Shown: positions 5,312 to 31,416 of the stretch, one piece after another
Layout: the number at the start of each line of letters is the position of its first letter
Position numbering within the stretch: the first letter of the stretch is position 1
Assembly: GCF_002777255.1 (NCBI RefSeq)
Contig: NZ_CP017634.1
Coordinates: forward strand, 600,903 to 632,902
Origin: Candidatus Formimonas warabiya
Lineage (GTDB): Bacteria > Bacillota > Dehalobacteriia > Dehalobacteriales > Dehalobacteriaceae
Direction: 5' to 3'
DNA length: 32,000 nt
Made by a program: the position numbers and the translations under genes
Notes under the pieces: generated by a model
What the model saw: the letters and a program-made list of their open reading frames with translations, nothing else
The model's database searches: none
Told to the model about the DNA's origin: nothing

Positions 5312-6691
5312 ATGATAAAAAACAAATGCGGAGTTGTCCTAATCCTGGTTCTGGTCCTCGGTATGGGGGTATTTACCGCCGGCTGCGGCAATACTCAGGC
5401 TGCCAGGGAAGATAATAATCCTAATTCCCTGACCATTGCGGTTGTGACCAAAGATATGTACCTGGATACGGCAGTAAAAAAGTTTGAGGAACTTCATCCC
5501 GGCGTCAGTGTGGAAGTGAAAGAATACACCTCCAGTACTTCGGAAAAAGGTGAAGGTGTCAGGGCGGCAGATCCCGGCGATATTGAAAAATATGTCACGA
5601 CTATGAATACCCAGCTCATGTCCGGCCAGGGCAGCGATATAATTTTATTAAACAACCTGCCCTATCAGACCTATGCGGATAAGAATCTTTTAGTTGACTT
5701 GGGGGGGCTGATGCAGTCGGATCAAAGCTTCGACAGGGGCAAATACTACCAAAATATTTTCAAGGCTTTAGAATATAAAGATAAACTATATGGGCTGCCG
5801 GTTAATATCGGTATCGATATGATTGCCGCCGATAGAACCTTACTGGCTGATTCCCAGGTGCAAATCGACGATAGCAACTGGGATTGGAACGATTTTGTCA
5901 AGACGGCGGAAAAGGTCATTAACGACAAGCAAAACGGGGGAACCCAGGAGATGTATGCCTTGGCCGGGATGGATGAAAAAAGACTGATTATGACTCTGGT
6001 TAAAGAAAACTATGACAACCTGGTCGATCCGGAGAAGGAAACAGCCAATTTTACCGGCCAGGAATTTCTTGATTTACTTTCCTTAAGTAAATATCTGATT
6101 GACCACAAACTGGTTAATACGGATACAGCCCAGACCAACATTATGGACATGGCCTCCCGGGGTAAACTTGTTTTTAATTTCACTTCTCTTAGTGGGTTTT
6201 GGGACCTGCAAGTGGCCAAGGCGATTTTCAGCGAGGGTGTTCAGCTTTTAAAGCCCCCCGGAAACGTGTTCTTTTCCACGGACTCTATGTATGGAATCAG
6301 CAGTAAATCAGCCAATCAAGAACTGGCCTGGGAATTTTTAAAATTTTTGGTCTCTGATGATATGATGACTCAGGGAGGAATGCCGATTAATAAGAGTGTG
6401 CTTCCCCAGATTGCCCAGAATTTCACCCAGGCTATCCAAAAAAGGGGCGGGAAAATGATGATCAAGGACGACGGCATTCCAGCTCAACCTATAACACTGC
6501 AACCCCCCACCCAGGAGGATGTGGATTACATGGAAAACCTGCTGAGTCAAGCGAAGGTCTACATCGGAACGGACCAGAAGATTATTTCCATTGTTCAGGA
6601 GGAAACCGCGGCCTTCCTTACAGGACAGAAGACAGCGGAAACGACTGCCCAATTGATTCAGGACAGGGTGAGCACATACTTAAATGAATAA
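5312..6691 (+). CDS. Extracellular solute-binding lipoprotein (family 1 SBP) of the ABC importer
   Basis: Signal peptide with lipobox (LGMGVFTAGCGN), roughly 460 aa, last gene of the same-strand cluster. ATG 5312 is preferred over TTG 5309 because of RBS spacing. Confidence 0.8.
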   Translation: MIKNKCGVVLILVLVLGMGVFTAGCGNTQAAREDNNPNSLTIAVVTKDMYLDTAVKKFEELHPGVSVEVKEYTSSTSEKGEGVRAADPGDIEKYVTTMNTQLMSGQGSDIILLNNLPYQTYADKNLLVDLGGLMQSDQSFDRGKYYQNIFKALEYKDKLYGLPVNIGIDMIAADRTLLADSQVQIDDSNWDWNDFVKTAEKVINDKQNGGTQEMYALAGMDEKRLIMTLVKENYDNLVDPEKETANFTGQEFLDLLSLSKYLIDHKLVNTDTAQTNIMDMASRGKLVFNFTSLSGFWDLQVAKAIFSEGVQLLKPPGNVFFSTDSMYGISSKSANQELAWEFLKFLVSDDMMTQGGMPINKSVLPQIAQNFTQAIQKRGGKMMIKDDGIPAQPITLQPPTQEDVDYMENLLSQAKVYIGTDQKIISIVQEETAAFLTGQKTAETTAQLIQDRVSTYLNE

Positions 6692-6701
6692 TAGGAAAAG
6701 A

Positions 6702-6783
6702 ATAAGTTCTTCATAAGAATTTATTAAGATTTTGATAAGTTGAAATTCCAACATCGCCTGCCTGATTTCGATAAGATGAAATT
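6702..6783 (+). promoter_or_regulatory. Phased ATAAG/TTAAG repeats plus an 18-bp imperfect direct repeat upstream of vanW (candidate response-regulator binding array)
   Basis: The pentamers ATAAG, ATAAG, TTAAG and ATAAG start at 6702, 6713, 6724 and 6735, exactly 11 bp apart. TTTTGATAAGTTGAAATT (6730-6747) recurs as TTTCGATAAGATGAAATT (6766-6783), with 16 of 18 positions identical. Confidence 0.4.
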
Positions 6784-6828
6784 GTCGAATCGGACAGGCT
6801 TTTAACATTCCTGAAAGGAGGCATGGAC

Positions 6829-7656
6829 ATGAAAAGGAAAAGAATTACTCAATTGTTTCCATTCTTACTACCGATCCGCAGGACACAAAGAAAATTATTC
6901 TTCTATGCCAAGATGTGCTTTGACCGGAACCACTATGCAAAAGCAAAGGATCCAGAGTTTTTGCCTTTTTGCATATATGAAACCAAGTCGAAGCTTCTAA
7001 ATGACAATACGGGCTTTGATATAAAATATCAGGAAAACAAGGTGTTTAATCTGCGCCTTGCCGCGGAGCCTGTAAATGGCATATTAATATGCCCTGGTGA
7101 AACATTTTCATTTTGGCAGCGTGTGAGATATGCCGAGAAAAATGAGCGGTATAAGGACGGTTTGTGCATGGTAAATGGCGAATTGGTCACGGTTCCGGGA
7201 GGCGGTTTGTGTCATCTCAGCAATTTTCTGTTCTGGCTGTTTCTGCATACTCCGCTCACCATTGTAGAACGGCATCCTCATCAGATTAAGGATTTTCCTT
7301 CTCCTGATGAGGATGAACCGGATGGTGTGGACGCTACGGTCCGCGAAGGGTGGTTGGATTTAAAGGTCAAAAACAACACCAATCTTACCTTCCAAATTAA
7401 GATATCCCTCAATGGACCTTACATTTATGGCTCTATTTTTATAGATCAGGCCATAGGGCATCGTTACGGGATTATTAATCGCGAAAAGAGCTATTTCAAA
7501 AAAGAAGGGAAAACCTTTGAGCGGGTTTCTGTCTGTCAGCAGAAGATAGACATCAAATCCAAACAAGTTATTTCAGAAAACCTGCTTTATACGGACGTAT
7601 ATGAAGTCGGGTATCCGCTTCCGGAAGAAACTGCTATCGCAGAAGTAAAGAAGTGA
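6829..7656 (+). CDS. vanW: VanW-family protein
   Basis: VanW-type blocks are present (PGETFSFWQRV, GGGLCHLSNFLFW) and the gene lies directly upstream of vanH-ligase-vanX. ATG 6829 sits 7 nt after AAAGGAGG; the ORF-track ATG 6823 is too close to the RBS. Confidence 0.85.
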   Translation: MKRKRITQLFPFLLPIRRTQRKLFFYAKMCFDRNHYAKAKDPEFLPFCIYETKSKLLNDNTGFDIKYQENKVFNLRLAAEPVNGILICPGETFSFWQRVRYAEKNERYKDGLCMVNGELVTVPGGGLCHLSNFLFWLFLHTPLTIVERHPHQIKDFPSPDEDEPDGVDATVREGWLDLKVKNNTNLTFQIKISLNGPYIYGSIFIDQAIGHRYGIINREKSYFKKEGKTFERVSVCQQKIDIKSKQVISENLLYTDVYEVGYPLPEETAIAEVKK

Positions 7657-7661
7657 TTGTT

Positions 7662-7736
7662 ATGAAAAAAAAAGTTGCCGTTTTATTCGGCGGATGCTTT
7701 ACAGAGTTTGAATTTTACTTGTTATATAATTTATGA
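7662..7736 (+). pseudogene. 24-codon remnant of the 5' end of a D-Ala-D-X ligase (ddl/van ligase) gene
   Basis: An ATG 5 nt after the vanW stop encodes MKKKVAVLFGGCFTEFEFYLLYNL*. This matches the conserved ligase N-terminus K(I/V)AV(L/I)FGG.S.E(H/Y)EVS and the intact ligase in this window (KIAIIFGGCSEEHPIS). Confidence 0.55.
7720..7730 (+). promoter_or_regulatory. Candidate extended -10 promoter element upstream of vanH
   Basis: TGtTATATAAT lies about 25 nt upstream of the vanH ATG, inside the ligase remnant. No good -35 element is present. Confidence 0.35.
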
Positions 7737-7753
7737 AAGGATAAATCTAAATC

Positions 7754-8722
7754 ATGGCAAAAATGGGAATTTCAATTTATGGATGCGGGCAGGACGAGGC
7801 CGTTTTGTTCCGAGAGATGGCGCCTCGCTTTGGCGTTATGCCAACTATCACAGATGCAGCGGTATCTGAAGTTAACATTGAACTGGCATTTGGAAATCGA
7901 TGCATCAGCGTCGGTCATAAAACTCAAATCACAAATTCCATTCTTCTTGCGCTCAGCCAAGCCGGTGTAAAGTATATCTCCACAAGAAGTATTGGATATA
8001 ACCATATTAATGTAAAATGCGCGGAGAGCGTTGGCATTTCCGTTGAAAATGTCGCTTATTCGCCCGATAGCGTGGCTGATTACACATTAATGCTGATGCT
8101 GATGGCGGTGCGAAATGCAAAATCCATTATCAGACGTGCAGATATTCATGATTTCAGATTGAATGATGTACGCGGGAAAGAATTACGCGATATGACCATT
8201 GGGGTAATTGGAACAGGACGCATTGGGGCAGCAGTTATGGACAGGCTGCGGGGCTTTGGCTGCCACATATTAGCCTATGACCATCGTCCCCAAACCTCTG
8301 CCGATTACGTTCCTCTTGATGAATTGTTACAGCAGAGCGATATTGTAACGCTCCATACACCACTTAACGCGGATACAAACCATCTTTTTAATCGTCAACG
8401 TATCGAGCAGATGAAGCACGGCGCGTTTATTATCAATACTGGACGCGGTTCACTTCTTGATACCGAGGCTCTTATTTCCGCGTTGGAAAGCGGTAAACTA
8501 GGCGGTGCAGCGTTGGATGTCCTCGAAGGAGAGGAAGGAGTATTCTACTTTGACTACAGAAACAAACCCATTGAAAGCAAACTGTTGTTGCGGTTACAAA
8601 AATTACCGAATGTGCTTATTACTCCGCACACCGCCTATTACACAGAACACACCTTGAGCGATACTGTTGAAAATACTATTATCAATTGCCTGAAATTTGA
8701 AAGGAGAAAGCAGCATGGATAG
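7754..8722 (+). CDS. vanH: D-specific 2-hydroxyacid (D-lactate) dehydrogenase, VanH type
   Basis: Close by-eye colinearity with VanH/VanHB, for example AYSPDSVADYTLMLMLMA, GVIGTGRIGAAV (NAD fold), GGAALDVLEGEE and ITPHTAYYTE. The stop overlaps the ligase start by 8 nt. Confidence 0.9.
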   Translation: MAKMGISIYGCGQDEAVLFREMAPRFGVMPTITDAAVSEVNIELAFGNRCISVGHKTQITNSILLALSQAGVKYISTRSIGYNHINVKCAESVGISVENVAYSPDSVADYTLMLMLMAVRNAKSIIRRADIHDFRLNDVRGKELRDMTIGVIGTGRIGAAVMDRLRGFGCHILAYDHRPQTSADYVPLDELLQQSDIVTLHTPLNADTNHLFNRQRIEQMKHGAFIINTGRGSLLDTEALISALESGKLGGAALDVLEGEEGVFYFDYRNKPIESKLLLRLQKLPNVLITPHTAYYTEHTLSDTVENTIINCLKFERRKQHG

Positions 8723-9755
8723 GTTGAAAATCGCAATTATATTCGGAGGCTGTTCCGAAGAACATCCCATCTCCGTTAAATCTGCGCAAGAGGTCGCAAA
8801 AAACCTTGATATCGAAAAGTATGAACCGTTCTATATCGGGATTACGAAAAATGGTGTTTGGAAGCTTTGTCACTGCCCTGACGCAAATTGGGAAAACGGC
8901 AGTTGCCGGAGGGCTATGCTGTCACCGGACAGAAGCGTACACGGATTGCTTGTTCTGGAGCAGGGACAATACAAAACGATCCGTTTGGATATGGTGTTTC
9001 CCGTTCTGCATGGCAAACTTGGCGAGGATGGTGCGATGCAAGGTTTGTTGGAGCTTTCCGGCATCCCCTATGTAGGCTGCGATGTCCAAAGTTCTGCTCT
9101 GTGTATGGACAAATCCCTTGCTTATATCGTCGCCAGAAACGCGGGAATTGCTACGCCAAATTTCTGGACTGTCACGGCGAACGAGAATATTGATGCCGAC
9201 CGGCTTACTTATCCCGTTTTTGTAAAGCCGGCCCGTTCGGGTTCATCTTTCGGCGTCAGTAAGGTATGTCGAAAAGAAGAATTGCTGAGTGCAGTGGAAA
9301 CCGCAAGACAGTATGACTCGAAGGTGTTGATTGAAGAGGCTGTCGTCGGCAGCGAGGTAGGATGTGCGATATTAGGGAACGATATGGATTTGATTGCAGG
9401 CGAGGTAGATCGAATTTGTCTATCTCATGGTTTTTTCAGAATCCATCAGGAGAATAAGCCTGAAAACGGTTCCGAAAACTCAACAGTAATCGTTCCCGCT
9501 GACATTTCGGCAGAGGCGCGCTTACTCGTTCAGGAGACAGCAAAAGCGGTATATCGCGCCTTGGGTTGCAGGGGACTTTCGCGGGTGGATATGTTCCTGA
9601 AGGAAGATGGAAAAGTAATACTTAACGAGGTTAATACTTTGCCCGGTATGACCTCATACAGCCGTTATCCGAGAATGATGGCAGCCGCAGGGTTAACCTT
9701 TGCCGAAGTGATCGAGCGGATTGTGTCGTTGACATGGAAAGGAAAAAGACGATGA
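8715..9755 (+). CDS. VanA/VanB-type D-alanine--D-lactate ligase
   Basis: ATG 8715 follows AAAGGAG. The N-terminus KIAIIFGGCSEEHPISVKSA, then YPVFVKPARSGSSFGV, and the omega-loop region FFRIHQENKPENGSENSTVIVPA match the VanA/B pattern (IHQE..PEKGSEN) rather than the Tyr-containing Ddl loop. The C-terminus reads NEVNTLPGMTSYSRYPRMM. Confidence 0.9.
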   Translation: MDRLKIAIIFGGCSEEHPISVKSAQEVAKNLDIEKYEPFYIGITKNGVWKLCHCPDANWENGSCRRAMLSPDRSVHGLLVLEQGQYKTIRLDMVFPVLHGKLGEDGAMQGLLELSGIPYVGCDVQSSALCMDKSLAYIVARNAGIATPNFWTVTANENIDADRLTYPVFVKPARSGSSFGVSKVCRKEELLSAVETARQYDSKVLIEEAVVGSEVGCAILGNDMDLIAGEVDRICLSHGFFRIHQENKPENGSENSTVIVPADISAEARLLVQETAKAVYRALGCRGLSRVDMFLKEDGKVILNEVNTLPGMTSYSRYPRMMAAAGLTFAEVIERIVSLTWKGKRR

Positions 9756-10360
9756 AAAATGATTTTGTCTTTGTAGACGAGTTTGTATCCGGAATACGTT
9801 GGGATGCTAAATACGCCACATGGGATAATTTTACCGGAAAACCGGTGGACGGATATGCAGCAAATCGAATTGTCGGTACGAGAGCTTTGTGCAGAGCCCT
9901 GGAAAAAGCACGAGAAAACGCCGCATCCTTTGGCTTTGGCTTGCTTCTTTGGGATGGTTATCGCCCTCAATGCGCCGTAGATTGTTTTCTGCGCTGGTCA
10001 AAACAGCCGGAAGATGGCCGGACGAAACCAAAACACTATCCGAATATTGACAGATCCGAGATAGTTGAAAAAGGATATGTGTCCGCTAAGTCGGGACACA
10101 GTCGGGGCAGCGCAATTGACTTAACGCTTTATTATTTAGCTACCGGTACACTTGTTCCAATGGGCGGTGACTTTGATTTGATGGATTCAGTCTCACATCA
10201 TGGAGCAAAAGGAATCACGCAAGTCGAAGCGAGAAACCGTCAATACCTTTGTTCTATCATGGAGGCCTGCGGTTTTATTTCATACGATTGCGAGTGGTGG
10301 CATTACATGCTGAAACACGAACCTTATCCAAACACTTATTTTGATTTTCCCATCAAATAG
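9752..10360 (+). CDS. vanX: D-Ala-D-Ala dipeptidase VanX
   Basis: ATGA start/stop overlap with the ligase. The sequence VRWDAKYATWDNFTGKPVDGY, the Zn-site motifs SGHSRGSAIDL and EWWHY, and LLLWDGYRP are present. Confidence 0.9.
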   Translation: MKNDFVFVDEFVSGIRWDAKYATWDNFTGKPVDGYAANRIVGTRALCRALEKARENAASFGFGLLLWDGYRPQCAVDCFLRWSKQPEDGRTKPKHYPNIDRSEIVEKGYVSAKSGHSRGSAIDLTLYYLATGTLVPMGGDFDLMDSVSHHGAKGITQVEARNRQYLCSIMEACGFISYDCEWWHYMLKHEPYPNTYFDFPIK

Positions 10361-10705: not shown

Positions 10706-11272
10706 ATGACAGATTTTAAAAGTAATTATACTCCATGTATTTTTCCAAACTCAATTACACAGGTTGCCGATATGCCCTATGCCTTGTATCTATCGCTTCA
10801 AGGAAAATATTTTGTAGGGTATGCACCTGACGTGCAATTCGTTAAAGGTAAATACGGATGGGCAGGACTAGTAAATCCTGATCATTCCTGCGTAAATCTT
10901 CATGTCTATGTATGGACAGTTACCAATTTCGGCGAATCTCCATTAAGTGCAGAAATATGGTTTAATACCAATACTCCAGAAAACTCAGTAATATCTGAGT
11001 TTACATCGCCAGCTAACACCGCTATCTGTCCTCTGCCACGGCCAAAGGTAGGAATACTTCAAGCAAATAATGTCAGCGGTCATCCGCAATGCGGTAATAG
11101 AATATCTGTCAAAAAAGTTCTTTCTGAGGTTACAATCGTCGGTGAAGAAGTCGGCAGATTTATCTTTCCGCCAGGAGGATCTTTTAGTGTTTTATTATCC
11201 AATGCCGAAGCATCAAGTCAATCAGGAATAGCAAATCTTGCTTTCGGATGGTGGGAAGAAGAAATAAAGTAG
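10706..11272 (+). CDS. Uncharacterised 188-aa protein, paralog A of a tandem pair
   Basis: GGGAG RBS and a clean ORF. No signal peptide or TM segment. It shares conserved blocks with the next gene (MPYxLYLSLQGKYF, WAGLxNP, VNLHxY, EVTIxxEEVGxFIFPPGGSF, WWEEE). Confidence 0.7.
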   Translation: MTDFKSNYTPCIFPNSITQVADMPYALYLSLQGKYFVGYAPDVQFVKGKYGWAGLVNPDHSCVNLHVYVWTVTNFGESPLSAEIWFNTNTPENSVISEFTSPANTAICPLPRPKVGILQANNVSGHPQCGNRISVKKVLSEVTIVGEEVGRFIFPPGGSFSVLLSNAEASSQSGIANLAFGWWEEEIK

Positions 11273-11296
11273 TTTATAAAAGGAGGTATTATTAAA

Positions 11297-11863
11297 ATGA
11301 AAAGCTGCAAGAAAAATGCTATACTTCTGACCAATCCGATAACCCAAATTGCCGGCATGCCCTATTCCCTATACCTGTCACTCCAGGGGAAATATTTTTC
11401 AGGCTTTACGGGAAAATTGGCGTTTGGAAATGGTAACAATGCCTGGGCCGGTTTATTGAATCCAGTCAATTCCAGAGTCAATTTGCACCTATATTTCTGG
11501 GAGGTATCCAATATAGGTCCATCACCTGTTCGGGCACGAATATATTTCAATTCCTACCCTCCTGGACAAAGAACAATAGTGAAAACGGTATTTCAAGGTA
11601 ACACTACGCTATGTCCGCCACCAAAACCGAGAATAAGACTATATCAGGCATCAGATGTAGCCGGTGAGCCAGAGGGAGGGGTCAGAGTATTTGTAAGAAG
11701 AGCTTTACCTGAAGTTACAATCGGTGATGAAGAGGTGGGCAAATTCATATTTCCACCTGGAGGGTCCTTTGTAATTTTCTTATCTAATCCGGAGACACCG
11801 GATGAACCTGCAAGTGCAACCCTTGGTTTTTCATGGTGGGAAGAAGAGGTAAATTGCCAATAA
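11297..11863 (+). CDS. Uncharacterised 188-aa protein, paralog B of a tandem pair
   Basis: AGGAGG RBS. A hand count gives 88 identical residues out of 172 gaplessly aligned positions against paralog A. Confidence 0.7.
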   Translation: MKSCKKNAILLTNPITQIAGMPYSLYLSLQGKYFSGFTGKLAFGNGNNAWAGLLNPVNSRVNLHLYFWEVSNIGPSPVRARIYFNSYPPGQRTIVKTVFQGNTTLCPPPKPRIRLYQASDVAGEPEGGVRVFVRRALPEVTIGDEEVGKFIFPPGGSFVIFLSNPETPDEPASATLGFSWWEEEVNCQ

Positions 11864-17714: not shown

Positions 17715-17789
17715 GGGCGCATAGATCAGCGGGAGATCGCTTGACTCACATTCAAGAGGTCGCTGGTTCGAAACCAGCTGTGCCCACCA
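17715..17789 (+). tRNA. tRNA-Val (anticodon CAC), CCA encoded
   Basis: Hand-folded cloverleaf. Acceptor stem GGGCGCA/TGTGCCC (one G-U pair), D stem GATC/GATC, anticodon stem CTTGA/TCAAG with loop CTCACAT, T arm GCTGG-TTCGAAA-CCAGC, discriminator A, then CCA. Confidence 0.9.
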
Positions 17790-24718: not shown

Positions 24719-26518
24719 ATGTCGGTAAGGGGAAATATCGAAGGTCTTTCTCAGGTGATGATCCAAAGGCTGGAATCTTCATATGATATAACCGTAGAAC
24801 GAGGTCAGGTGATCAACGTTCAGTTGGCCCAAGAAATGGCAGCTATTACCCATGCCACCAATAAAGAAATCGCGGTATACCTGGACCGGCGCGGGAAAGT
24901 GCTTCATGTGGCTGTTGGTAATGGGGATACCGTCCCTCTGGATGAGATTTCCGTCCGGAGAGGGCACCGGCGCCTGAGTGGGGTCCGCTGTATTCATACC
25001 CACCCGGGGGAAGACGGCGACCTGAGTCCGGCGGACTTAGCCGCTTTGGAAATCATGAGATTTGACTGTATGGTTGCTTTGGGTATTCTCAAAAACGGGT
25101 CCATCGGCACGATCGGGTTAGGTTTTCTGGAATTAAAAGCGTCCGAACCGGTGACCCGAAAAATGGTTTTGACCGGTTTGAGGGAATTGACAGAATACGA
25201 TTATCTGACTGACGTGGAAGAGATCGAGAAAAGTGGGGATCCCTTATTTCCTGTTGACCAAAAGTCGGTCCAGGAAAAAGCCCTTTTGGTTGCTCTCCAA
25301 ACAGAAAAAGACAACCAAACCACGCTGGAATCCTTGCATGAGTTGGCACAGCTGGCTGTCTCGGCCGGTCTTGCGGTGCTGGGGAAGGATCTTCAAAAAA
25401 GAAGCCGGCCGGATGCTGCGACCTATATTGGCCAGGGAAAAGCGCAGGAAATTCAGCTGGCGGCTCAGGCACAGGGTGCGGATGTGGTTATTTTTGATGA
25501 TGAGCTGTCGCCGGCCCAGCAAAGAAATTTGGCAGAACTGATCGGAGTCAAGATTATTGACCGGACCATGTTGATTTTGGATATCTTTGCCCAAAGGGCA
25601 TGGAGCAATGAAGGAAAGCTTCAGGTGGAATTAGCGCAACTGAAGTATTTGCTGCCCCGCCTCACCGGGCAGGGTACGGCTCTATCTCGTTTGGGAGGAG
25701 GCATTGGCACCAGAGGCCCCGGTGAAACCAAGCTGGAAGTGGATCGGAGACGGATCAGAAAGCGCATTTCCGATTTGGAACACCGCTTAGAGACGGTGCG
25801 TAAGGTCCGGAACATCCACCGCCGGCGTTGGGAAGCAATGGAGTTGCCGGTGGTCGCTTTAGTAGGTTATACGAATGCAGGCAAATCTTCTATCATGAAT
25901 TGTCTGACCGGGGCGGGCGTGTTGGTGGAAGACCAATTGTTTGCCACCCTTGATCCCACGACCCGGATTGTGGAATTGCCTGGTCACCGGTCCTTCCTCC
26001 TCACAGATACGGTTGGTTTTATTCGAAAACTGCCTCATCATCTGGTGGCGGCTTTTCGGGCTACTTTGGAAGAAACCATGGAGGCTGGTCTTTTATTGCA
26101 TGTGATTGATGGAAGCAATGATCAGGTAGACGAGCATATTTTAGCGGTGCATCAAGTTTTAACGGATCTGGGTGTCATGGGAAAACCGATGATTTCTGTG
26201 ATTAATAAAATTGATTTAATCGATAGCGATGGGACTTTGGCGCGCTTACTGCACAGAGTGGATCACGGGGTGGCTGTGTCTGCCCGGAAAAAGATGGGCA
26301 TAGACCAATTGCTGCAACAGATTGGGGAAATGCTTCCCCAACCCTTAACACTGATCAGAGTCTTGATTCCTTTTAAAAAAGCTTCTTTGGTTACGGCGCT
26401 TCATGATTATGGCCGAGTGATTAACGAAAGATATTCTGCCGAAGGAATTGAAATGGAGGCATATGTGGATCAGCGCATGAAGGGTATGCTGGAACGAGAA
26501 GGACTCCTTACGGACTAA
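24719..26518 (+). CDS. hflX: GTPase HflX with an approximately 180-aa N-terminal extension carrying a JAB/MPN-like motif
   Basis: The HflX core starts at about residue 185 ([50 protein letters not shown]). G1 is [10 protein letters not shown]3 is DTVGF and G4 is NKID. The N-terminus contains E50...H93-T-H95-P-x6-S103-x2-D106. Confidence 0.9.
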
Positions 26519-26544
26519 AAGCACAAATCAGTGCTTTTTTTCTT
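26517..26544 (+). terminator. Rho-independent terminator after hflX
   Basis: AAAAGCAC-aaatca-GTGCTTTT stem followed by a T-run, starting at the hflX stop codon. Confidence 0.8.
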
Positions 26545-26562
26545 CTTCTTTCGGGAATCTTA

Positions 26563-27561
26563 ATGAGGAAACCAAATAAATATACAAGGAGTCATGCTTT
26601 TGTGGCAAACACAATCTATTTTTTAGGCGCAGGAGCCTCAAGAGAAGCCGGAGTTCCTACGCAAAAAGAGATTTGGGAACAGATTGAGGCCGTAGGGCAA
26701 AAAACAGGAGAACAGAGAATTTGCACCCTGCTGGATTTTGCCGTCTATCTAAACTTTGGCCAACCGGGCCAAAAGGTGGCTGTTGATACGGCGGAACTGT
26801 TAACCCTCATCGACCTGGCTTTAGAACAGAATGTTTCTGTAGGAAAATACCAGGTGGAGGATTTGCGGAGCATTCGGGAGACTTTGATTCGGGTCATATG
26901 CAAAATTTTAGAGGCATCGGTGAAACCGGAACGATTAGATGTTTTTGCCGGATTTTGCACAAGATTAGCGCAGGAAGATACCATTATTTCGTTGAATTAT
27001 GATACGGTGATAGACCATATCCTTACTTCCTTTGTAGGCCAGGTAACCTATGGATTTAACTTTGCTGCCCAATTGGGAGAGGGAAGCGGTAAGAAAAGCA
27101 AAGGGACACAGCTGTTGTTAAAGCCTCATGGTTCGTTAAACTGGCGGTATTGCAGCCGGTGCAACAATATTTATCTCCTGGCCGGTGAAAAAAGCGACTG
27201 TTTTGACGGTCCGGATCAGAGGTGTCCGGCTGATGAGCATCCTCTTCTAGCCGTAGTTGTTACGCCATCTTACCGGAAACAGTTTTTAGTTCCCCAATTG
27301 CATGATGTTTGGATGCAATGTTTCCACCAGATTAAAAATGCGGATGTGATTAACTTTGTGGGATACTCTTTTCCTCCCGGGGATGTTCATATCATTCACC
27401 TGATCAAAAGGGCGGTTTTGGCCGGAGAAAAAAGGCCGGTGATAAATGTCATTTCCCGGGATTCCCAGGGCATGGTTTTTGACCGCTGCCAGAACATTTT
27501 TGCCGGTTTTAAATATTTTCAGACTTCTTTTGGTCATTATTTTTGTGATATGATTAATTAA
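26563..27561 (+). CDS. SIR2-family (sirtuin-like / SIR2_2-like) NAD-binding protein, stand-alone
   Basis: FLGAGASREAGVPT (GAGxS NAD motif), SLNYDTVID (N145/D147), KPHGSLNW (H189), then C197-x2-C200...C213-x7-C221. The C-terminus reads NFVGYSFPPGDVH. The start is uncertain: ATG 26563 has no RBS, while in-frame GTG 26602 lies 10 nt after AAGGAG. Confidence 0.7.
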   Translation: MRKPNKYTRSHAFVANTIYFLGAGASREAGVPTQKEIWEQIEAVGQKTGEQRICTLLDFAVYLNFGQPGQKVAVDTAELLTLIDLALEQNVSVGKYQVEDLRSIRETLIRVICKILEASVKPERLDVFAGFCTRLAQEDTIISLNYDTVIDHILTSFVGQVTYGFNFAAQLGEGSGKKSKGTQLLLKPHGSLNWRYCSRCNNIYLLAGEKSDCFDGPDQRCPADEHPLLAVVVTPSYRKQFLVPQLHDVWMQCFHQIKNADVINFVGYSFPPGDVHIIHLIKRAVLAGEKRPVINVISRDSQGMVFDRCQNIFAGFKYFQTSFGHYFCDMIN

Positions 27562-27623
27562 GGAAATAAATCACTCCGGTGGAAAATAAAGAGTGAAAAC
27601 TCAACCAGGGGAAACGGTGAATT

Positions 27624-28004
27624 ATGGATATTCTCGCCGTGATTAAAGAAAAGATAAATAAAAAAGAATGGATGCACTTTGTTTACCAGGAGCCCGACGG
27701 CATGATCAGATTTTATGCTGTTTTGCCCTATCTGCTCGGGCAATCCTTTTTTCAAGGCCTCACAGAGAAAGGAACCGCTTCTTTTCAGATTTCTAATGTG
27801 CTTACCGTCCAACCGCCCACAGAGAAAGTTTCCTGGCGCTTGATTTGCCGGAAAACCAGTTTGATTATTTTTCCCGGTAAGCCGGGAGCCGCCTTCTTTT
27901 ATGATTTGTCGGAAAAAGAAAAGAATCTTTTAATGCAGGCCTTTTTTTCCCGCCGGGTGATCATGATCGGTGATTTTATTTTTTTGCAGCAGGGAGAGAA
28001 ATAA
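27624..28004 (+). CDS. Hypothetical 126-aa protein
   Basis: Clean ORF with a weak GGGGA/GGTGA RBS. Its stop overlaps the next start (TAATG). No TM segment or signal peptide, and no family I can name. Confidence 0.5.
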   Translation: MDILAVIKEKINKKEWMHFVYQEPDGMIRFYAVLPYLLGQSFFQGLTEKGTASFQISNVLTVQPPTEKVSWRLICRKTSLIIFPGKPGAAFFYDLSEKEKNLLMQAFFSRRVIMIGDFIFLQQGEK

Positions 28005-28804
28005 TGTACGATTATCATTTGCACTCCACCAATTCGCCCGATGGTCGCTTATCCATAGAGGAAGTATGTGAGCTGGCTATCCAAAAAGGATTTAAAGAAA
28101 TTGCTTTTACCGAGCATTTGGATTATGACTGTCCCGGTCACATCGATTTGTTATTGGATTATGAAAAATATTCCGAAGAGATCGACCGGGCCAGAGAAAA
28201 ATATTTTGGCGCTCTAAATATTGTCAAAGGCTTGGAAATGGGGCTCCAGCCTCAGGTAATGGAGAGGAACAGGGACTTTGTCAGGAAAAATCCTTTTGAT
28301 TTTATCATTGGCTCGGTCCACCACATTGACGGCTTGCAGCTGTTTAACGGGGATTTTTGCCAGGGCAAGCGGCGTGAGGAAGCCTATCGAAGCTATTTGC
28401 AGGAAGTGGACCGGCTGGTGGAGACATTTGCTGATTTTCATGTTTTAGGGCATATGGATGTGATCCGCCGGTATCCCGGATTTGATGATCGGACCATCAG
28501 CACACGGGAATATGCCGATTTAATCGACAGCATCCTGAAGAAGTTGATCCGTTCCCACCGGGGCATAGAAGTCAATTCATCCGGATTCAGATTTAAATTG
28601 GCGGACACATTACCTACGCTAGATGTGGTAACCCGCTACCGGGAATTGGGCGGAGAAATTATCACGGTGGGGTCAGACGCCCACCGGACAGACGCCGTGG
28701 GCTATAAAATTGAGGAGGCTTATCAGGTATTGAAAACCAGCGGCTTCAATTATGTCTGCCTTTTTAGAAACGGAGCGCCAATAAAGGTTCCCCTACCTGT
28801 CTAA
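28004..28804 (+). CDS. PHP-domain phosphoesterase, HisJ/HisK histidinol-phosphatase family
   Basis: MYDYHLHSTNSPDG (HxH), FTEHLDY, GSVHHID, LGHMD and GSDAH metal-ligand blocks typical of the PHP histidinol phosphatase family. GGGAGAG RBS. Confidence 0.8.
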   Translation: MYDYHLHSTNSPDGRLSIEEVCELAIQKGFKEIAFTEHLDYDCPGHIDLLLDYEKYSEEIDRAREKYFGALNIVKGLEMGLQPQVMERNRDFVRKNPFDFIIGSVHHIDGLQLFNGDFCQGKRREEAYRSYLQEVDRLVETFADFHVLGHMDVIRRYPGFDDRTISTREYADLIDSILKKLIRSHRGIEVNSSGFRFKLADTLPTLDVVTRYRELGGEIITVGSDAHRTDAVGYKIEEAYQVLKTSGFNYVCLFRNGAPIKVPLPV

Positions 28805-28810
28805 ACGCGA

Positions 28811-28847
28811 AAGAACCCTAAACAGAGAATTGGTTCCGGGTTCTTTT
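28811..28847 (+). terminator. Probable terminator after the PHP gene
   Basis: The 8-bp stem AAGAACCC / GGGTTCTT has a 19-nt loop and is followed by TT; the U-tract is weak. Confidence 0.45.
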
Positions 28848-28946
28848 CCATCAGTTTTAACAGGATCTTAACAATAAATTAAAGGAAAAACCGCTTTTTT
28901 ATGGAACAATTGCTTTAAAACGATATTAATTATTAGGGTGGGAGAA

Positions 28947-29630
28947 ATGCAGAAAATATTAATTGTCGATGATGAAGAAAATATTGTCAGCCTGATCGAA
29001 TACAATTTAAAAAATGCCGGTTTTCAGACGATTGCAGCATATGATGGCCGTAAAGCTGTGACGATGGCCCGTGAGCAAAGGCCCGATTTGATTGTTCTGG
29101 ATGTGATGCTGCCGGGAATGGATGGCTTTGATGTGGTACGGGAACTAAGAAAAGAAAGTAACGTGCCGGTTTTGATGCTCACAGCGCGGGCGGAAGAATT
29201 CGACCGGGTCTTGGCTTTGGAGCTGGGGGCAGACGATTATTTAATTAAACCCTTTAGTACCAGGGAATTGGTTGCCCGGGTAAAAGCCATCCTGCGCAGG
29301 GTCACCAGTGAACCCCGGGAGGAGGAAAAAGCCGTGATCAAGGCCGGCCCCATTACCGTCGATGTGGAGAGACACGAGGTCCATGTGGATGAGAAAGAAA
29401 TTCAGCTTACGGCGAAAGAATATGAATTGCTAAAGCTTTTGGTCACCAACCGGGGCAGGGTTTTTTCCCGGGAAAAATTGCTGGAGCAGTTGTGGGATTA
29501 TGATTATTTTGGCGATACCCGCACCATTGATGTGCACATGAGACACCTGCGGGAGAAAATTGAGCAGGATTCCGCTAATCCCCGTTATTTAAAAACTATC
29601 CGGGGTGTAGGGTACAAGTTTGAGGAGTGA
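28947..29630 (+). CDS. phoP: OmpR-family response regulator PhoP
   Basis: The receiver domain (MQKILIVDDEENI, DLIVLDVMLPGMDG, KPF) is followed by a winged-helix domain (LTAKEYELLKLL, RTIDVHMRHLREKI, TIRGVGYKF). Context supports the call: a kinase, a Pho box and pstS lie immediately downstream. Confidence 0.85.
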   Translation: MQKILIVDDEENIVSLIEYNLKNAGFQTIAAYDGRKAVTMAREQRPDLIVLDVMLPGMDGFDVVRELRKESNVPVLMLTARAEEFDRVLALELGADDYLIKPFSTRELVARVKAILRRVTSEPREEEKAVIKAGPITVDVERHEVHVDEKEIQLTAKEYELLKLLVTNRGRVFSREKLLEQLWDYDYFGDTRTIDVHMRHLREKIEQDSANPRYLKTIRGVGYKFEE

Positions 29631-29634
29631 TCAT

Positions 29635-31416
29635 ATGTTGCGGGTGTTTCGGGGGATTAGAGGCAGAATCATTTCCACTTATCTTTTTTTAATCTTAATA
29701 TCCATGGCCGTACTGGGCATCACCTTAATCTGGATGCTGCAGAACTACTTGTTGTCAAATCTAGAAAGTAACATGGCAAATCAGGCCGGTTTAGTGTCAA
29801 ATCTGATTTCTGATCCCATTGCCCTTGGCGAATTTGACCAGGTTGACGCCCAGATCAAGGATTTGGGCAGGACCCTCCAGGCCAGAATCACCATCGTTTT
29901 GCCCAACGGCAAAGTAGTGGGGGACTCTCAATTTAATCCTTCGAATATGGAAAACCATGGTCACCGGCCGGAAATCCAAAAGGCCCTGCACAAAGAGGTG
30001 GGCGAGTATGTCAGGGTGAGCAGCACGGCCGGATTGGAAACCATGTATGTGGCGGTACCCATTGAAGCGCAAGGTCAAGTGGTGGGTGTGGCCCGAATCT
30101 CCCATCCTCTCCAAGAAATCAAGCACACTTTTCTAAAACTGCGGGGAATCCTGTTTACAGGAATTATTATTGCCACCTTTATCGCCGTTTTATTAAGTTT
30201 AAAACTGGCCAAGGGATTCACGGAGCCCATTGAAAGTATTAGTGCAGGAGCCCGTAAAATTACCGCGGGCGATTTAGATGCCCGGGTGTACTCTAGTTCC
30301 AGGGACGAATTGGGAGAATTAGGGAGTACCATTAATTATATGACGCAGACTTTAAAAGAACACATTGATGAAATATCCCAGGAAAAGAGCCGTTTGGAAA
30401 ACATTTTGCACACCATGGTCAGTGGGGTCGTGGTCCTGGATAATCACGGATTGGTGCGCATTGTCAATCCGGCTGCGGAAGAAATGTTTGGCATCAGCGC
30501 TGTGACCTCCGAGGGAAAACATAATCTGGAGGTAATCCGCCACTTTGGCTTAAACAATCAGATTGAAAAATGTCTCATTTCGGAAAAAATCATTGAATAT
30601 GAGTTTTCCCTTCGTTTTCCGGAAGAAAGGGTGATTCAGTGTTACATTGCACCGGTCTACCGGGACAAAAAGATTAGTGGAATTACCCTGGTGTTTCACG
30701 ATATTACCAAACTGCGCAAACTGGAACAGATGCGCGCGGATTTTGTGGCCAATGCCTCCCATGAACTGAGGACACCCCTGACGGTGATCAAGGGATATGT
30801 GGAAACTTTGTTAAACGGAGCCTTAGACGACCGGCAGGTGAGCGAGAAATTTGTCACGGTGATCGACGAGGAAGCTGACCGTTTGAAAAGGCTGGTAGAT
30901 GAACTGCTAACCCTGTCCCAACTGGAATCCAATCGACAGGAAGCAGAAGAGCCTGTGCTGGTATTGGGGATTATTACATTAGTGGCCGAGGAAATGAGGC
31001 AACGTTTCCAAGAAAAACAAATTGCTCTGGAATTAAATCTTCCCGGCGTTGTTCCCCAGGTGAAGGCGAATCCGGACCGGGTGAAGCAAATTTTGGTTAA
31101 CCTGCTGGATAATGCCTTAAAATATACACCTTACGGAGGCAGGGTGACGGTAGGGGCGGAGGAAGAAGAAAACTTTGTCAGAATATGTGTGCAAGACACC
31201 GGGATGGGAATTCCTTCTGAAGATTTGCCCAGAATATTTGAGCGCTTTTACCGGGTGGATAAAGCGAGAAGCAGGCAAATGGGAGGTTTTGGACTGGGTC
31301 TTTCCATTGTCAAGCATATGGTGGAAAATATGGGAGGAAGTATTCGGGTGGAAAGCACCCTCAATGAAGGAAGTACTTTTTGGTTTACCCTGCCTAAGTA
31401 TGAAGCGGTTGGTTAA
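29635..31416 (+). CDS. phoR: Sensor histidine kinase PhoR
   Basis: ATG lies 7 nt after GAGGAG. The protein has two TM segments flanking an extracytoplasmic domain, a HAMP domain, a PAS domain, the HisKA H-box FVANASHELRTPLT and an HATPase domain (NLLDNALKYT, DTGMGI, GGFGLGLSIV). Confidence 0.85.
   Translation: MLRVFRGIRGRIISTYLFLILISMAVLGITLIWMLQNYLLSNLESNMANQAGLVSNLISDPIALGEFDQVDAQIKDLGRTLQARITIVLPNGKVVGDSQFNPSNMENHGHRPEIQKALHKEVGEYVRVSSTAGLETMYVAVPIEAQGQVVGVARISHPLQEIKHTFLKLRGILFTGIIIATFIAVLLSLKLAKGFTEPIESISAGARKITAGDLDARVYSSSRDELGELGSTINYMTQTLKEHIDEISQEKSRLENILHTMVSGVVVLDNHGLVRIVNPAAEEMFGISAVTSEGKHNLEVIRHFGLNNQIEKCLISEKIIEYEFSLRFPEERVIQCYIAPVYRDKKISGITLVFHDITKLRKLEQMRADFVANASHELRTPLTVIKGYVETLLNGALDDRQVSEKFVTVIDEEADRLKRLVDELLTLSQLESNRQEAEEPVLVLGIITLVAEEMRQRFQEKQIALELNLPGVVPQVKANPDRVKQILVNLLDNALKYTPYGGRVTVGAEEEENFVRICVQDTGMGIPSEDLPRIFERFYRVDKARSRQMGGFGLGLSIVKHMVENMGGSIRVESTLNEGSTFWFTLPKYEAVG

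Follow-up and report, generated by a model that had tools for sequence, protein, structure and literature searches.

In a 32-kb window of the Candidatus Formimonas warabiya genome (contig NZ_CP017634.1; the window is the whole 32,000-nucleotide (nt) stretch of DNA that was analysed, and all positions refer to it), a gene for a SIR2-like protein lies directly behind hflX and ahead of genes for a small protein and a PHP phosphoesterase. We put at about even the chance that this gene encodes a defence-type SIR2 enzyme cleaving nicotinamide adenine dinucleotide (NAD), which was captured by an ancestor of the lineage and has been kept as a stand-alone chromosomal gene behind hflX, with optional passengers downstream. 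A sequence-only reading of the same DNA had grouped the three genes as a terminator-bracketed cassette. The layout that it described is present: there are three plus-strand open reading frames (ORFs; 26563-27561, 27624-28004 and 28004-28804), our scan shows no plus-strand terminator-like site between them, and the last two overlap by one base within TAATG. The constant element, present in every Formimonas or Dehalobacterium member found, is the first gene, which encodes a single-domain enzyme of the SIR2_2 family and stands alone behind the hflX terminator.

Related loci were gathered by look-ups of close homologs (50-63% identity), by a scan of species-representative genomes and by a metagenome scan, and they represent 13 lineages (the window, L001, L004/L007, L006, L008, L009, L010, L011, L012, L089, L090, L091 and L092). 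In each of the 13 lineages, and also in L093, the gene that directly precedes SIR2 is hflX, within a conserved block of the order apgM-ubiE-(MBL)-hflX-SIR2 (MBL, metallo-beta-lactamase-fold gene). Across the 12 related loci compared, hflX is 62-70% identical, and its orthologs carry the GTP-bdg_N, GTP-bdg_M and MMR_HSR1 domains.

The genes that follow the SIR2 gene differ from lineage to lineage. It is followed directly by phoP in L001 (D. formicoaceticum) and L009, by the PHP gene and then phoP or other genes in L006, L089, L090, L091 and L010, by both the small and the PHP genes in L011, L012 and the window itself, and by the small gene and then an unrelated minus-strand ORF in L092. The triad is complete in 3 of the 13 lineages, the PHP gene is present in nine and missing from four, and the small gene is present in four and missing from nine. 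In L004/L007, an 82-amino-acid (aa) membrane-like ORF, an MBL-fold gene, an insertion sequence (IS) with an rve transposase, and DUF1540 and Coat_F spore-coat-type genes stand after the SIR2 gene and replace phoPR, so the interval behind the SIR2 gene is a variable spot.

Because the SIR2 gene is fixed in position, co-diverges with hflX and lies in housekeeping synteny while the genes downstream vary, the three genes do not make up a conserved system. The sequence-only reading had itself named a conserved SIR2 gene for a housekeeping deacylase, found at this position in relatives without the small ORF, as an outcome that would speak against its proposal. As to position and conservation, this is largely what the loci contain: a SIR2 gene behind hflX in every close relative found, most of them lacking the small ORF. 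The partner roles that it had proposed for the small and PHP proteins are likewise unsupported. A fixed, stand-alone NADase of defence or stress is possible.

Pairwise identities of SIR2 and hflX are tightly correlated (r = 0.97 over 66 locus pairs). The ratio of nonsynonymous to synonymous substitution rates (dN/dS) is 0.07-0.18 for the SIR2 gene, 0.05-0.11 for hflX, 0.09-0.12 for the PHP gene and 0.26-0.36 for the small gene. The SIR2 gene is under purifying selection and, as far as synteny and co-divergence tell, looks vertically inherited. Long-form hflX genes of 41-54% identity have no SIR2 gene downstream, which argues for a single acquisition of SIR2 in this clade. The simplest history would be one capture in the clade ancestor followed by vertical descent; the gene was probably recruited a single time from among SIR2 genes of the defence type and would have been kept under purifying selection since then.

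Translation of SIR2 most probably begins at GTG 26602, which gives a protein of 319 aa, since all 16 close homologs (304-330 aa) align from this codon, a conserved AAGGAG lies 8-10 nt upstream of it, and ATG 26563, where the longest ORF starts, falls within a conserved non-coding box. The database entry for the protein also has 319 aa and not the 332 aa of that ORF. Residue numbers of the motifs therefore shift by -13 from the numbering of the 332-aa ORF, which places GAGAS at 9-13, NYD at 132-134, HG at 176-177 and CxxC at 184-187. All four motifs had been located correctly within the longer ORF by the sequence-only reading; only their numbers come down by 13 with the probable GTG start.

We detected a single domain in the SIR2 protein, with no SLOG, TIR, APAZ or HerA-type region. 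The Pfam model SIR2_2 (PF13289) matches at 24.8 bits, a borderline score above the curated cut-off of 24.5, and the SIR2 models of PADLOC match down to 4.6e-13, the best being Aga_SIR2 class II. Searched against PDB, a family profile built from 76 SIR2 sequences found the SIR2 chains of SIR2-HerA as its best matches (2e-18 to 5e-15), followed by KomC, SPARSA, DSR2, FAM118B, ThsA and the classical sirtuins. The AlphaFold2 (AF2) model of the protein has a predicted local distance difference test (pLDDT) score of 91.7 and a predicted template modelling (pTM) score of 0.90. With this model, Foldseek also ranked the SIR2 of SIR2-HerA best (probability 1.0, template modelling (TM) score 0.60-0.66, 14-18% identity), and classical sirtuins were among the fold matches (E 1e-8 to 1e-6).

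Residues G9, G11, P19, N132, D134, K174, H176, G177, S178, G254 and D261 are invariant in all 76 sequences, and since they include G9, G11, N132, D134 and H176-G177-S178, the NAD pocket appears intact. Domain scans, alignment and model thus bear out the earlier description of a SIR2-like protein that keeps its NAD-site residues and lacks a fused sensor, and its suggested kinship to defence NAD-cleaving enzymes (NADases) agrees with the nearest characterised relatives, which are SIR2-HerA, KomC, SPARSA, DSR2 and ThsA. Within the close clade, C184-x2-C187, C208 and D211 do not vary, and the cysteines occur in about half of the distant family; judged by its motif spacing, this Cys3-Asp insert would be zinc-ribbon-like. 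The protein is predicted to bind NAD+ and to cleave the nicotinamide-ribose bond. It is more probably an enzyme of the ThsA/SIR2-HerA type, either an NAD+ glycohydrolase or one that transfers ADP-ribosyl groups, than a classical lysine deacetylase, and it would probably act alone or as a homo-oligomer.

More distant homologs of the SIR2 protein (72 sequences, 23-31% identity) occur widely among the bacterial phyla and also in some archaea. Genes directly beside theirs encode, among others, type I methyltransferases, prokaryotic Argonaute (pAgo; two loci), AbiJ, AbiTii, TIR_2, XhoI, Mrr, PIN_8, integrases and a reverse transcriptase. Because defence genes are among these neighbours, the SIR2 gene of the Formimonas clade appears to descend from a family that is typical of variable, defence-rich regions. 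When neighbours were clustered over five genes on either side in the 84 loci with SIR2 located, no shared family emerged beyond the close clade, and a conserved partner for the distant homologs was rejected on this ground. Among single loci, a distant homolog in L037 (8001-8867) lies between RibD and acetyl-CoA synthetase, one in L015 adjoins a reverse-transcriptase protein of 1253 aa and a DUF4062 protein, and two adjoin the pAgo genes mentioned above.

The fixed position, the strict co-divergence with hflX and the low dN/dS would also suit a housekeeping enzyme, and we regard it as conceivable, if rather unlikely, that the SIR2 protein is a lysine deacylase or mono-ADP-ribosyltransferase acting on cellular targets, with the zinc-ribbon-like insert binding substrate as it does in sirtuins. 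The pattern C184-x2-C187...C208-x2-D211 after the catalytic His is invariant, and its spacing presumably agrees with that of classical sirtuin zinc modules. Classical sirtuins are also among the fold matches, and the homolog in L037 adjoins acetyl-CoA synthetase. However, the classical Sir2 model of Pfam (PF02146) reaches 16.2 bits, below its cut-off of 24, and the NCBIfam CobB models stay far below theirs (14-18 bits against 221-320). The motifs are of the SIR2_2 type, with SLNYDT and, at the place of the sirtuin cofactor loop (motif GIPxFR), GVPTQKEIW. The closest folds and sequences are NADase subunits, and the cysteine cluster is found in only about half of the wider family.

Several points weigh against a captured defence enzyme that stands alone behind hflX. 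The Pfam score for SIR2_2 barely exceeds its cut-off. The loci were mostly retrieved by a SIR2 protein search, so losses of SIR2 would escape notice, and the sole retrieval anchored on hflX yielded one close-clade locus, L093, which carries the SIR2 gene. The supplements of a F. warabiya metaproteomics paper, which we searched, do not mention SIR2, histidinol-phosphatase or HflX by name. An immune role is compatible with vertical inheritance, so inheritance alone excludes no such role. Close PHP orthologs (at least 54% identity) always adjoin the SIR2 gene where the contig is long enough, so a functional link between the SIR2 and PHP proteins is possible.

We consider it quite unlikely that the SIR2 NADase has been domesticated throughout the lineage, be it as a stand-alone immune or stress switch that depletes NAD+ through a new mode of activation, or as a module with the small protein and the HisJ-like phosphatase. 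The diverged clade of HisJ-like phosphatases to which the PHP protein belongs has so far been seen only beside this SIR2 gene, and if such a module were real, SIR2, small protein and diverged HisJ-like phosphatase would make up a previously undescribed one.

The small gene is, judging from its homologs, real, young and narrowly distributed. A word-indexed search had returned only the small protein itself, as if the ORF were an orphan or an artefact; this was rejected once HMMER and tblastn found homologs. These are 41-51% identical (tblastn, BLASTP) and stand right after the SIR2 gene in L011 (P0098), L012 and L092, and the full HMMER search with the small protein gave P0098 at 8e-27. The one-base stop/start overlap with the PHP gene is kept wherever both genes occur, reading TAGTG in L011 and L012, as had been claimed for the TAATG of the window. 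All four lineages with the small gene (window, L011, L012 and L092) share a conserved string, AGGAAATWATT...CCGSTGGAA, in the spacer between the SIR2 and small genes. The protein would be the product of a young, lineage-restricted gene that is translationally coupled to the PHP gene.

We found no significant match for the small protein in Pfam, NCBIfam or PADLOC, in agreement with its earlier description as belonging to no known family, and a PDB profile search gave nothing relevant. The WYL/SH3 likeness that had been suggested for it lacks support from these searches: WYL in Pfam matches none of the four family members at E values up to 10, and the AF2 model, built from a two-sequence input, has a pLDDT of 49 and is not interpretable. 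Residues 47-85 repeatedly match P0099-P0103, very long proteins of CDSFLYLILTVNDT-type repeats (HMMER, E down to 7.5e-19 summed over 11 repeats), and these matches were judged spurious as evidence of relationship.

The PHP protein was claimed to be a PHP metal-dependent enzyme, and this is confirmed. It matches Pfam PHP at 4e-27 and belongs to the HisJ family (TIGR01856 hisJ_fam, 176.6 bits against a cut-off of 90.2); its NCBI name is 'histidinol-phosphatase HisJ family protein'. Full-length matches link it to the L. lactis histidinol phosphatase (PDB 4GC3, 3.4e-38) and to T. thermophilus 2YXO (3.3e-24), and the metal-ligand positions conserved relative to 4GC3 are H5, H7, D13, H38, the E in GLEMG, H106, the H in GHMD and the D/H in SDAH. 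The equivalog model PRK05588 scores 186, below its cut-off of 321.

A search for another hisJ in the genome, which the sequence-only reading had recommended, identified a second paralog, P0188, which is 40% identical to the PHP protein of the window and scores 196 bits on hisJ_fam against 177 bits for the latter. Neither paralog sits in a his operon; P0188 (L087/L088) is flanked by a chemotaxis receptor gene on one side and by serine dehydratase genes on the other. The gap between the SIR2 and PHP genes is 33-48 nt, and since the whole region is syntenic, this adjacency is weak evidence of a link. Most simply, the PHP protein would be a HisJ-family phosphomonoesterase and a histidinol-phosphatase paralog.

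With both downstream proteins described, little probability falls to a new anti-phage system with the SIR2 NADase as effector, the small protein as sensor of infection and the PHP protein to process a nucleotide-derived product. The nearest characterised relatives of the SIR2 protein are indeed defence NADases, L011 and L012 have the triad too, with small and PHP genes overlapping by one base as in the window, the small gene is under purifying selection at the dN/dS given above, and the string in its upstream spacer is conserved. But only 3 of the 13 lineages have the complete triad, and the SIR2 gene also occurs alone, with the PHP gene only or with the small gene only. The PADLOC models are silent on the small and PHP proteins, the PHP protein is an ordinary member of the HisJ family, and the locus shows core synteny and co-divergence of SIR2 with hflX, and no defence island or mobile element.

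As to the boundaries of the locus, a hairpin at 26517-26538 comes right after hflX and is followed by a T-run. It folds at -8.6 kcal/mol (z = -4.7), and hairpin and T-run can be read at the corresponding position of 11 or more of the 13 relatives. The terminator scan of the window called 7 terminator-like sites against 10.9 in shuffled sequences, that is, no excess, and the hflX terminator is credible because it is conserved in relatives and not because of the scan. Its earlier description as a strong terminator holds for the hairpin and T-run, but 'strong' is too much for a stem of 8 bp of which three are G-C pairs. The closing hairpin that had been described after the PHP gene (about 28809-28847, -14.1 kcal/mol) is also present, but it is weak (z = -2.2; 5 of 200 shuffles fold as well) and only slightly better than chance, has a long loop and was not called by the terminator scan. 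This second bracket is not conserved, since the PHP or SIR2 gene of relatives abuts phoP by 2-56 nt.

A box TTTSGGGAAW-N1-3-YTAAT lies 8-12 nt past the hflX T-run and ahead of the SIR2 start in most relatives (window, L001, L006, L009-L012 and L089-L092). The box differs from a sigma-70 consensus. No promoter of the sigma-70 type was called at the box of the window (26549-26564), which may be a promoter element for an alternative sigma factor or an operator. Transcription of the SIR2 gene would begin in a start region of its own behind the hflX terminator, with the small and PHP genes as optional passengers on its transcript, and transcription probably continues into phoPR in several relatives. 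The coordinates of all features are collected in Table 1.

Table 1. Features of the SIR2 locus and its flanks, with their positions in the window
Feature	Position	Strand	Basis
hflX, long form, 599 aa	24719..26518	+	ORF call; directly upstream of the SIR2-like gene, invariantly
Intrinsic-terminator-like hairpin AAAAGCAC/GTGCTTTT with T-run after hflX	26517..26548	+	Terminator scan, folding, conservation
Conserved box TTTCGGGAATCTTAAT between hflX terminator and SIR2 start	26549..26564	+	Comparison of relatives
Gene for predicted SIR2_2-family NAD-site enzyme, 319 aa from GTG	26602..27561	+	Pfam, PADLOC, AF2, Foldseek
Spacer between SIR2 and small genes, with the conserved string	27562..27623	+	Alignment of window, L011, L012 and L092 spacers
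Small protein gene, 126 aa, lineage-restricted, no known family	27624..28004	+	Homologs in 3 relatives
Gene for HisJ-family PHP phosphoesterase, 266 aa	28004..28804	+	Pfam PHP, TIGR01856
Hairpin after PHP gene (GAAAGAACCC...GGGTTCTTTT), weak terminator candidate	28809..28847	+	Folding
Pho-box-like direct repeat TTAACA-GGATC-TTAACA upstream of phoP	28857..28873	+	Pattern search
phoP and phoR, two-component system, conserved downstream neighbour of the block	28938..31416	+	ORF calls; domains on orthologs

The phoP and phoR orthologs carry Response_reg/Trans_reg_C and HAMP/PAS/HisKA/HATPase_c domains, respectively. The repeat upstream of phoP is perfect, resembles a PhoP box of the Bacillus type and putatively marks a separate phoPR promoter in this genome; in L010, similar repeats occur after the PHP gene. 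In L006, L090, L001 and L009, the SIR2 or PHP gene ends 2-56 nt from phoP with no terminator between, so SIR2(-PHP)-phoP-phoR is probably one transcript there. These four loci, in which phoPR and pst genes follow, and the fact that PHP enzymes are phosphoesterases would favour a phosphate-starvation (phoPR) transcription unit in which the SIR2 and PHP proteins scavenge or remodel nucleotide- or NAD-derived phosphate. We hold this to be very improbable: in the window, the PHP gene is set apart from phoP by a hairpin and the separate Pho-box-like repeat, the pattern search found no such repeat upstream of the SIR2 gene in any locus, SIR2 chemistry liberates no phosphate, and adjacency says little where the wider region is syntenic anyway.

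That the SIR2 enzyme is tied to HflX, for example through NAD-dependent modification of HflX or the ribosome under stress, is hardly credible: hflX is directly upstream in every close locus and also adjoins a distant homolog in a Nitrospira metagenome-assembled genome (L067), but a conserved terminator separates hflX from SIR2, long-form hflX is common without SIR2, 71 of the 72 distant homologs are not near hflX, and none of the papers searched connects HflX and SIR2. The L067 locus (6114-8819) is the only one in which a distant homolog adjoins hflX, on the opposite strand, and this adjacency is probably a coincidence.

The HflX protein of the window is itself of a long form. Its first ~135 residues (window 24719-25170) carry E27...H93-T-H95-x7-S103-x2-D106, which is invariant in 7 relatives and may be a JAMM/MPN+ metalloprotease motif, with profile support that stays below threshold. 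In PDB, a profile of this N-terminal region matched nothing but JAMM deubiquitinases of the AMSH type, with the alignment falling on the motif (E ~0.35), and, in agreement with these matches, the RadC and Prok-JAB models of Pfam match it at ~0.03, also below threshold. We found the long form in 20 further metagenome loci (35-54% identity). Since long-form hflX is widespread without SIR2, we rejected the idea that this JAB-like form of HflX is connected with SIR2.

Besides the three genes, the window encodes transporters, a van-like cluster, metabolic genes, TerC, apgM, ubiE, hflX and phoPR. Pfam and PADLOC scans of the 32 kb showed no gene for HerA, TIR, SLOG, APAZ or pAgo. Integrase, transposase and restriction-modification genes were not detected there either, nor were other mobile-element or defence genes. 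The GC content of the three genes is 0.42-0.46 against 0.45-0.52 in the flanks, which does not mark them as a clear foreign island. Rfam gave no RNA family in or around the three genes; its sole match in the window, at 17715-17786 on the plus strand, is a tRNA gene. Further upstream we detected vanW, a vanH-like D-2-hydroxyacid dehydrogenase gene, a D-Ala-D-X ligase gene and a vanX dipeptidase gene in a row (6823-10360), a cluster of the glycopeptide-resistance type; F. warabiya is reportedly named in a paper about vanHAX genes outside Actinobacteria (PMC9689679). A tandem pair of paralogous DUF6143 genes (188 aa each) lies at 10706-11863.

SIR2-domain NADases are usually viewed as mobile, partner-dependent immune effectors, and the close cousin described here is partnerless, core-syntenic and, by all appearances, vertically inherited. 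The locus cautions against naming defence systems from domain content alone, and it is a possible example of a defence enzyme that has been fixed or re-purposed in a host lineage. If the protein turns out to be an active NADase that stands alone, the way in which it is controlled would be of interest; should it modify proteins instead, the range of SIR2_2 chemistry would be extended. Neither outcome would shift current understanding much without experiments.

Among known systems, SIR2-HerA (Nezha; PDB 8sub, 8uae, 8j4u, 8w9l and 8yhx) is the closest by both profile and fold. Its SIR2 subunit and the protein described here share an NAD pocket of the SIR2_2 type with Asn and His. They differ in length (about 380-430 aa against 319 aa) and in the Cys3-Asp insert, and their identity is as low as the Foldseek values above. 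Neither in the window nor in any of the 13 lineages does a gene for HerA or another ATPase adjoin SIR2, which is chromosomally fixed there and not patchy. The pAgo-associated SIR2 proteins (Aga_SIR2, and SIR2-APAZ of SPARSA, PDB 8in8) provide the best PADLOC model, but the match covers the SIR2 core only, and unlike in short pAgo or SPARSA systems, there is neither APAZ nor a pAgo gene in the window or close loci, the two pAgo neighbours noted above belonging to distant homologs.

ThsA, DSR1/DSR2 and KomC have the SIR2 fold and the N...H catalytic pair in common with the protein, at weaker matches (E 1e-3 to 1e-6). Unlike in Thoeris, the protein has no SLOG, no TIR-domain ThsB is its neighbour, and the window holds no TIR gene. 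DSR1 and DSR2 are proteins of about 1000 aa with a large C-terminal sensor, and the DSR2 match is confined to the SIR2 core of the much shorter protein. KomC is accompanied by KomAB partners, which are absent here.

The classical sirtuins (CobB, Sir2Tm and Sir2Af) share the Rossmann SIR2 fold and the zinc-ribbon-like Cys cluster after the catalytic His, whereas the protein described here falls below the Pfam and NCBIfam cut-offs, carries cofactor-loop and NID motifs of the SIR2_2 type, and has Asp at the position of the fourth zinc ligand. Finally, although the PHP protein is below the PRK05588 cut-off and its paralog P0188 is slightly more canonical, it aligns over its full length with the HisJ phosphatases of L. 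lactis and T. thermophilus and keeps their His/Asp/Glu metal-ligand positions.

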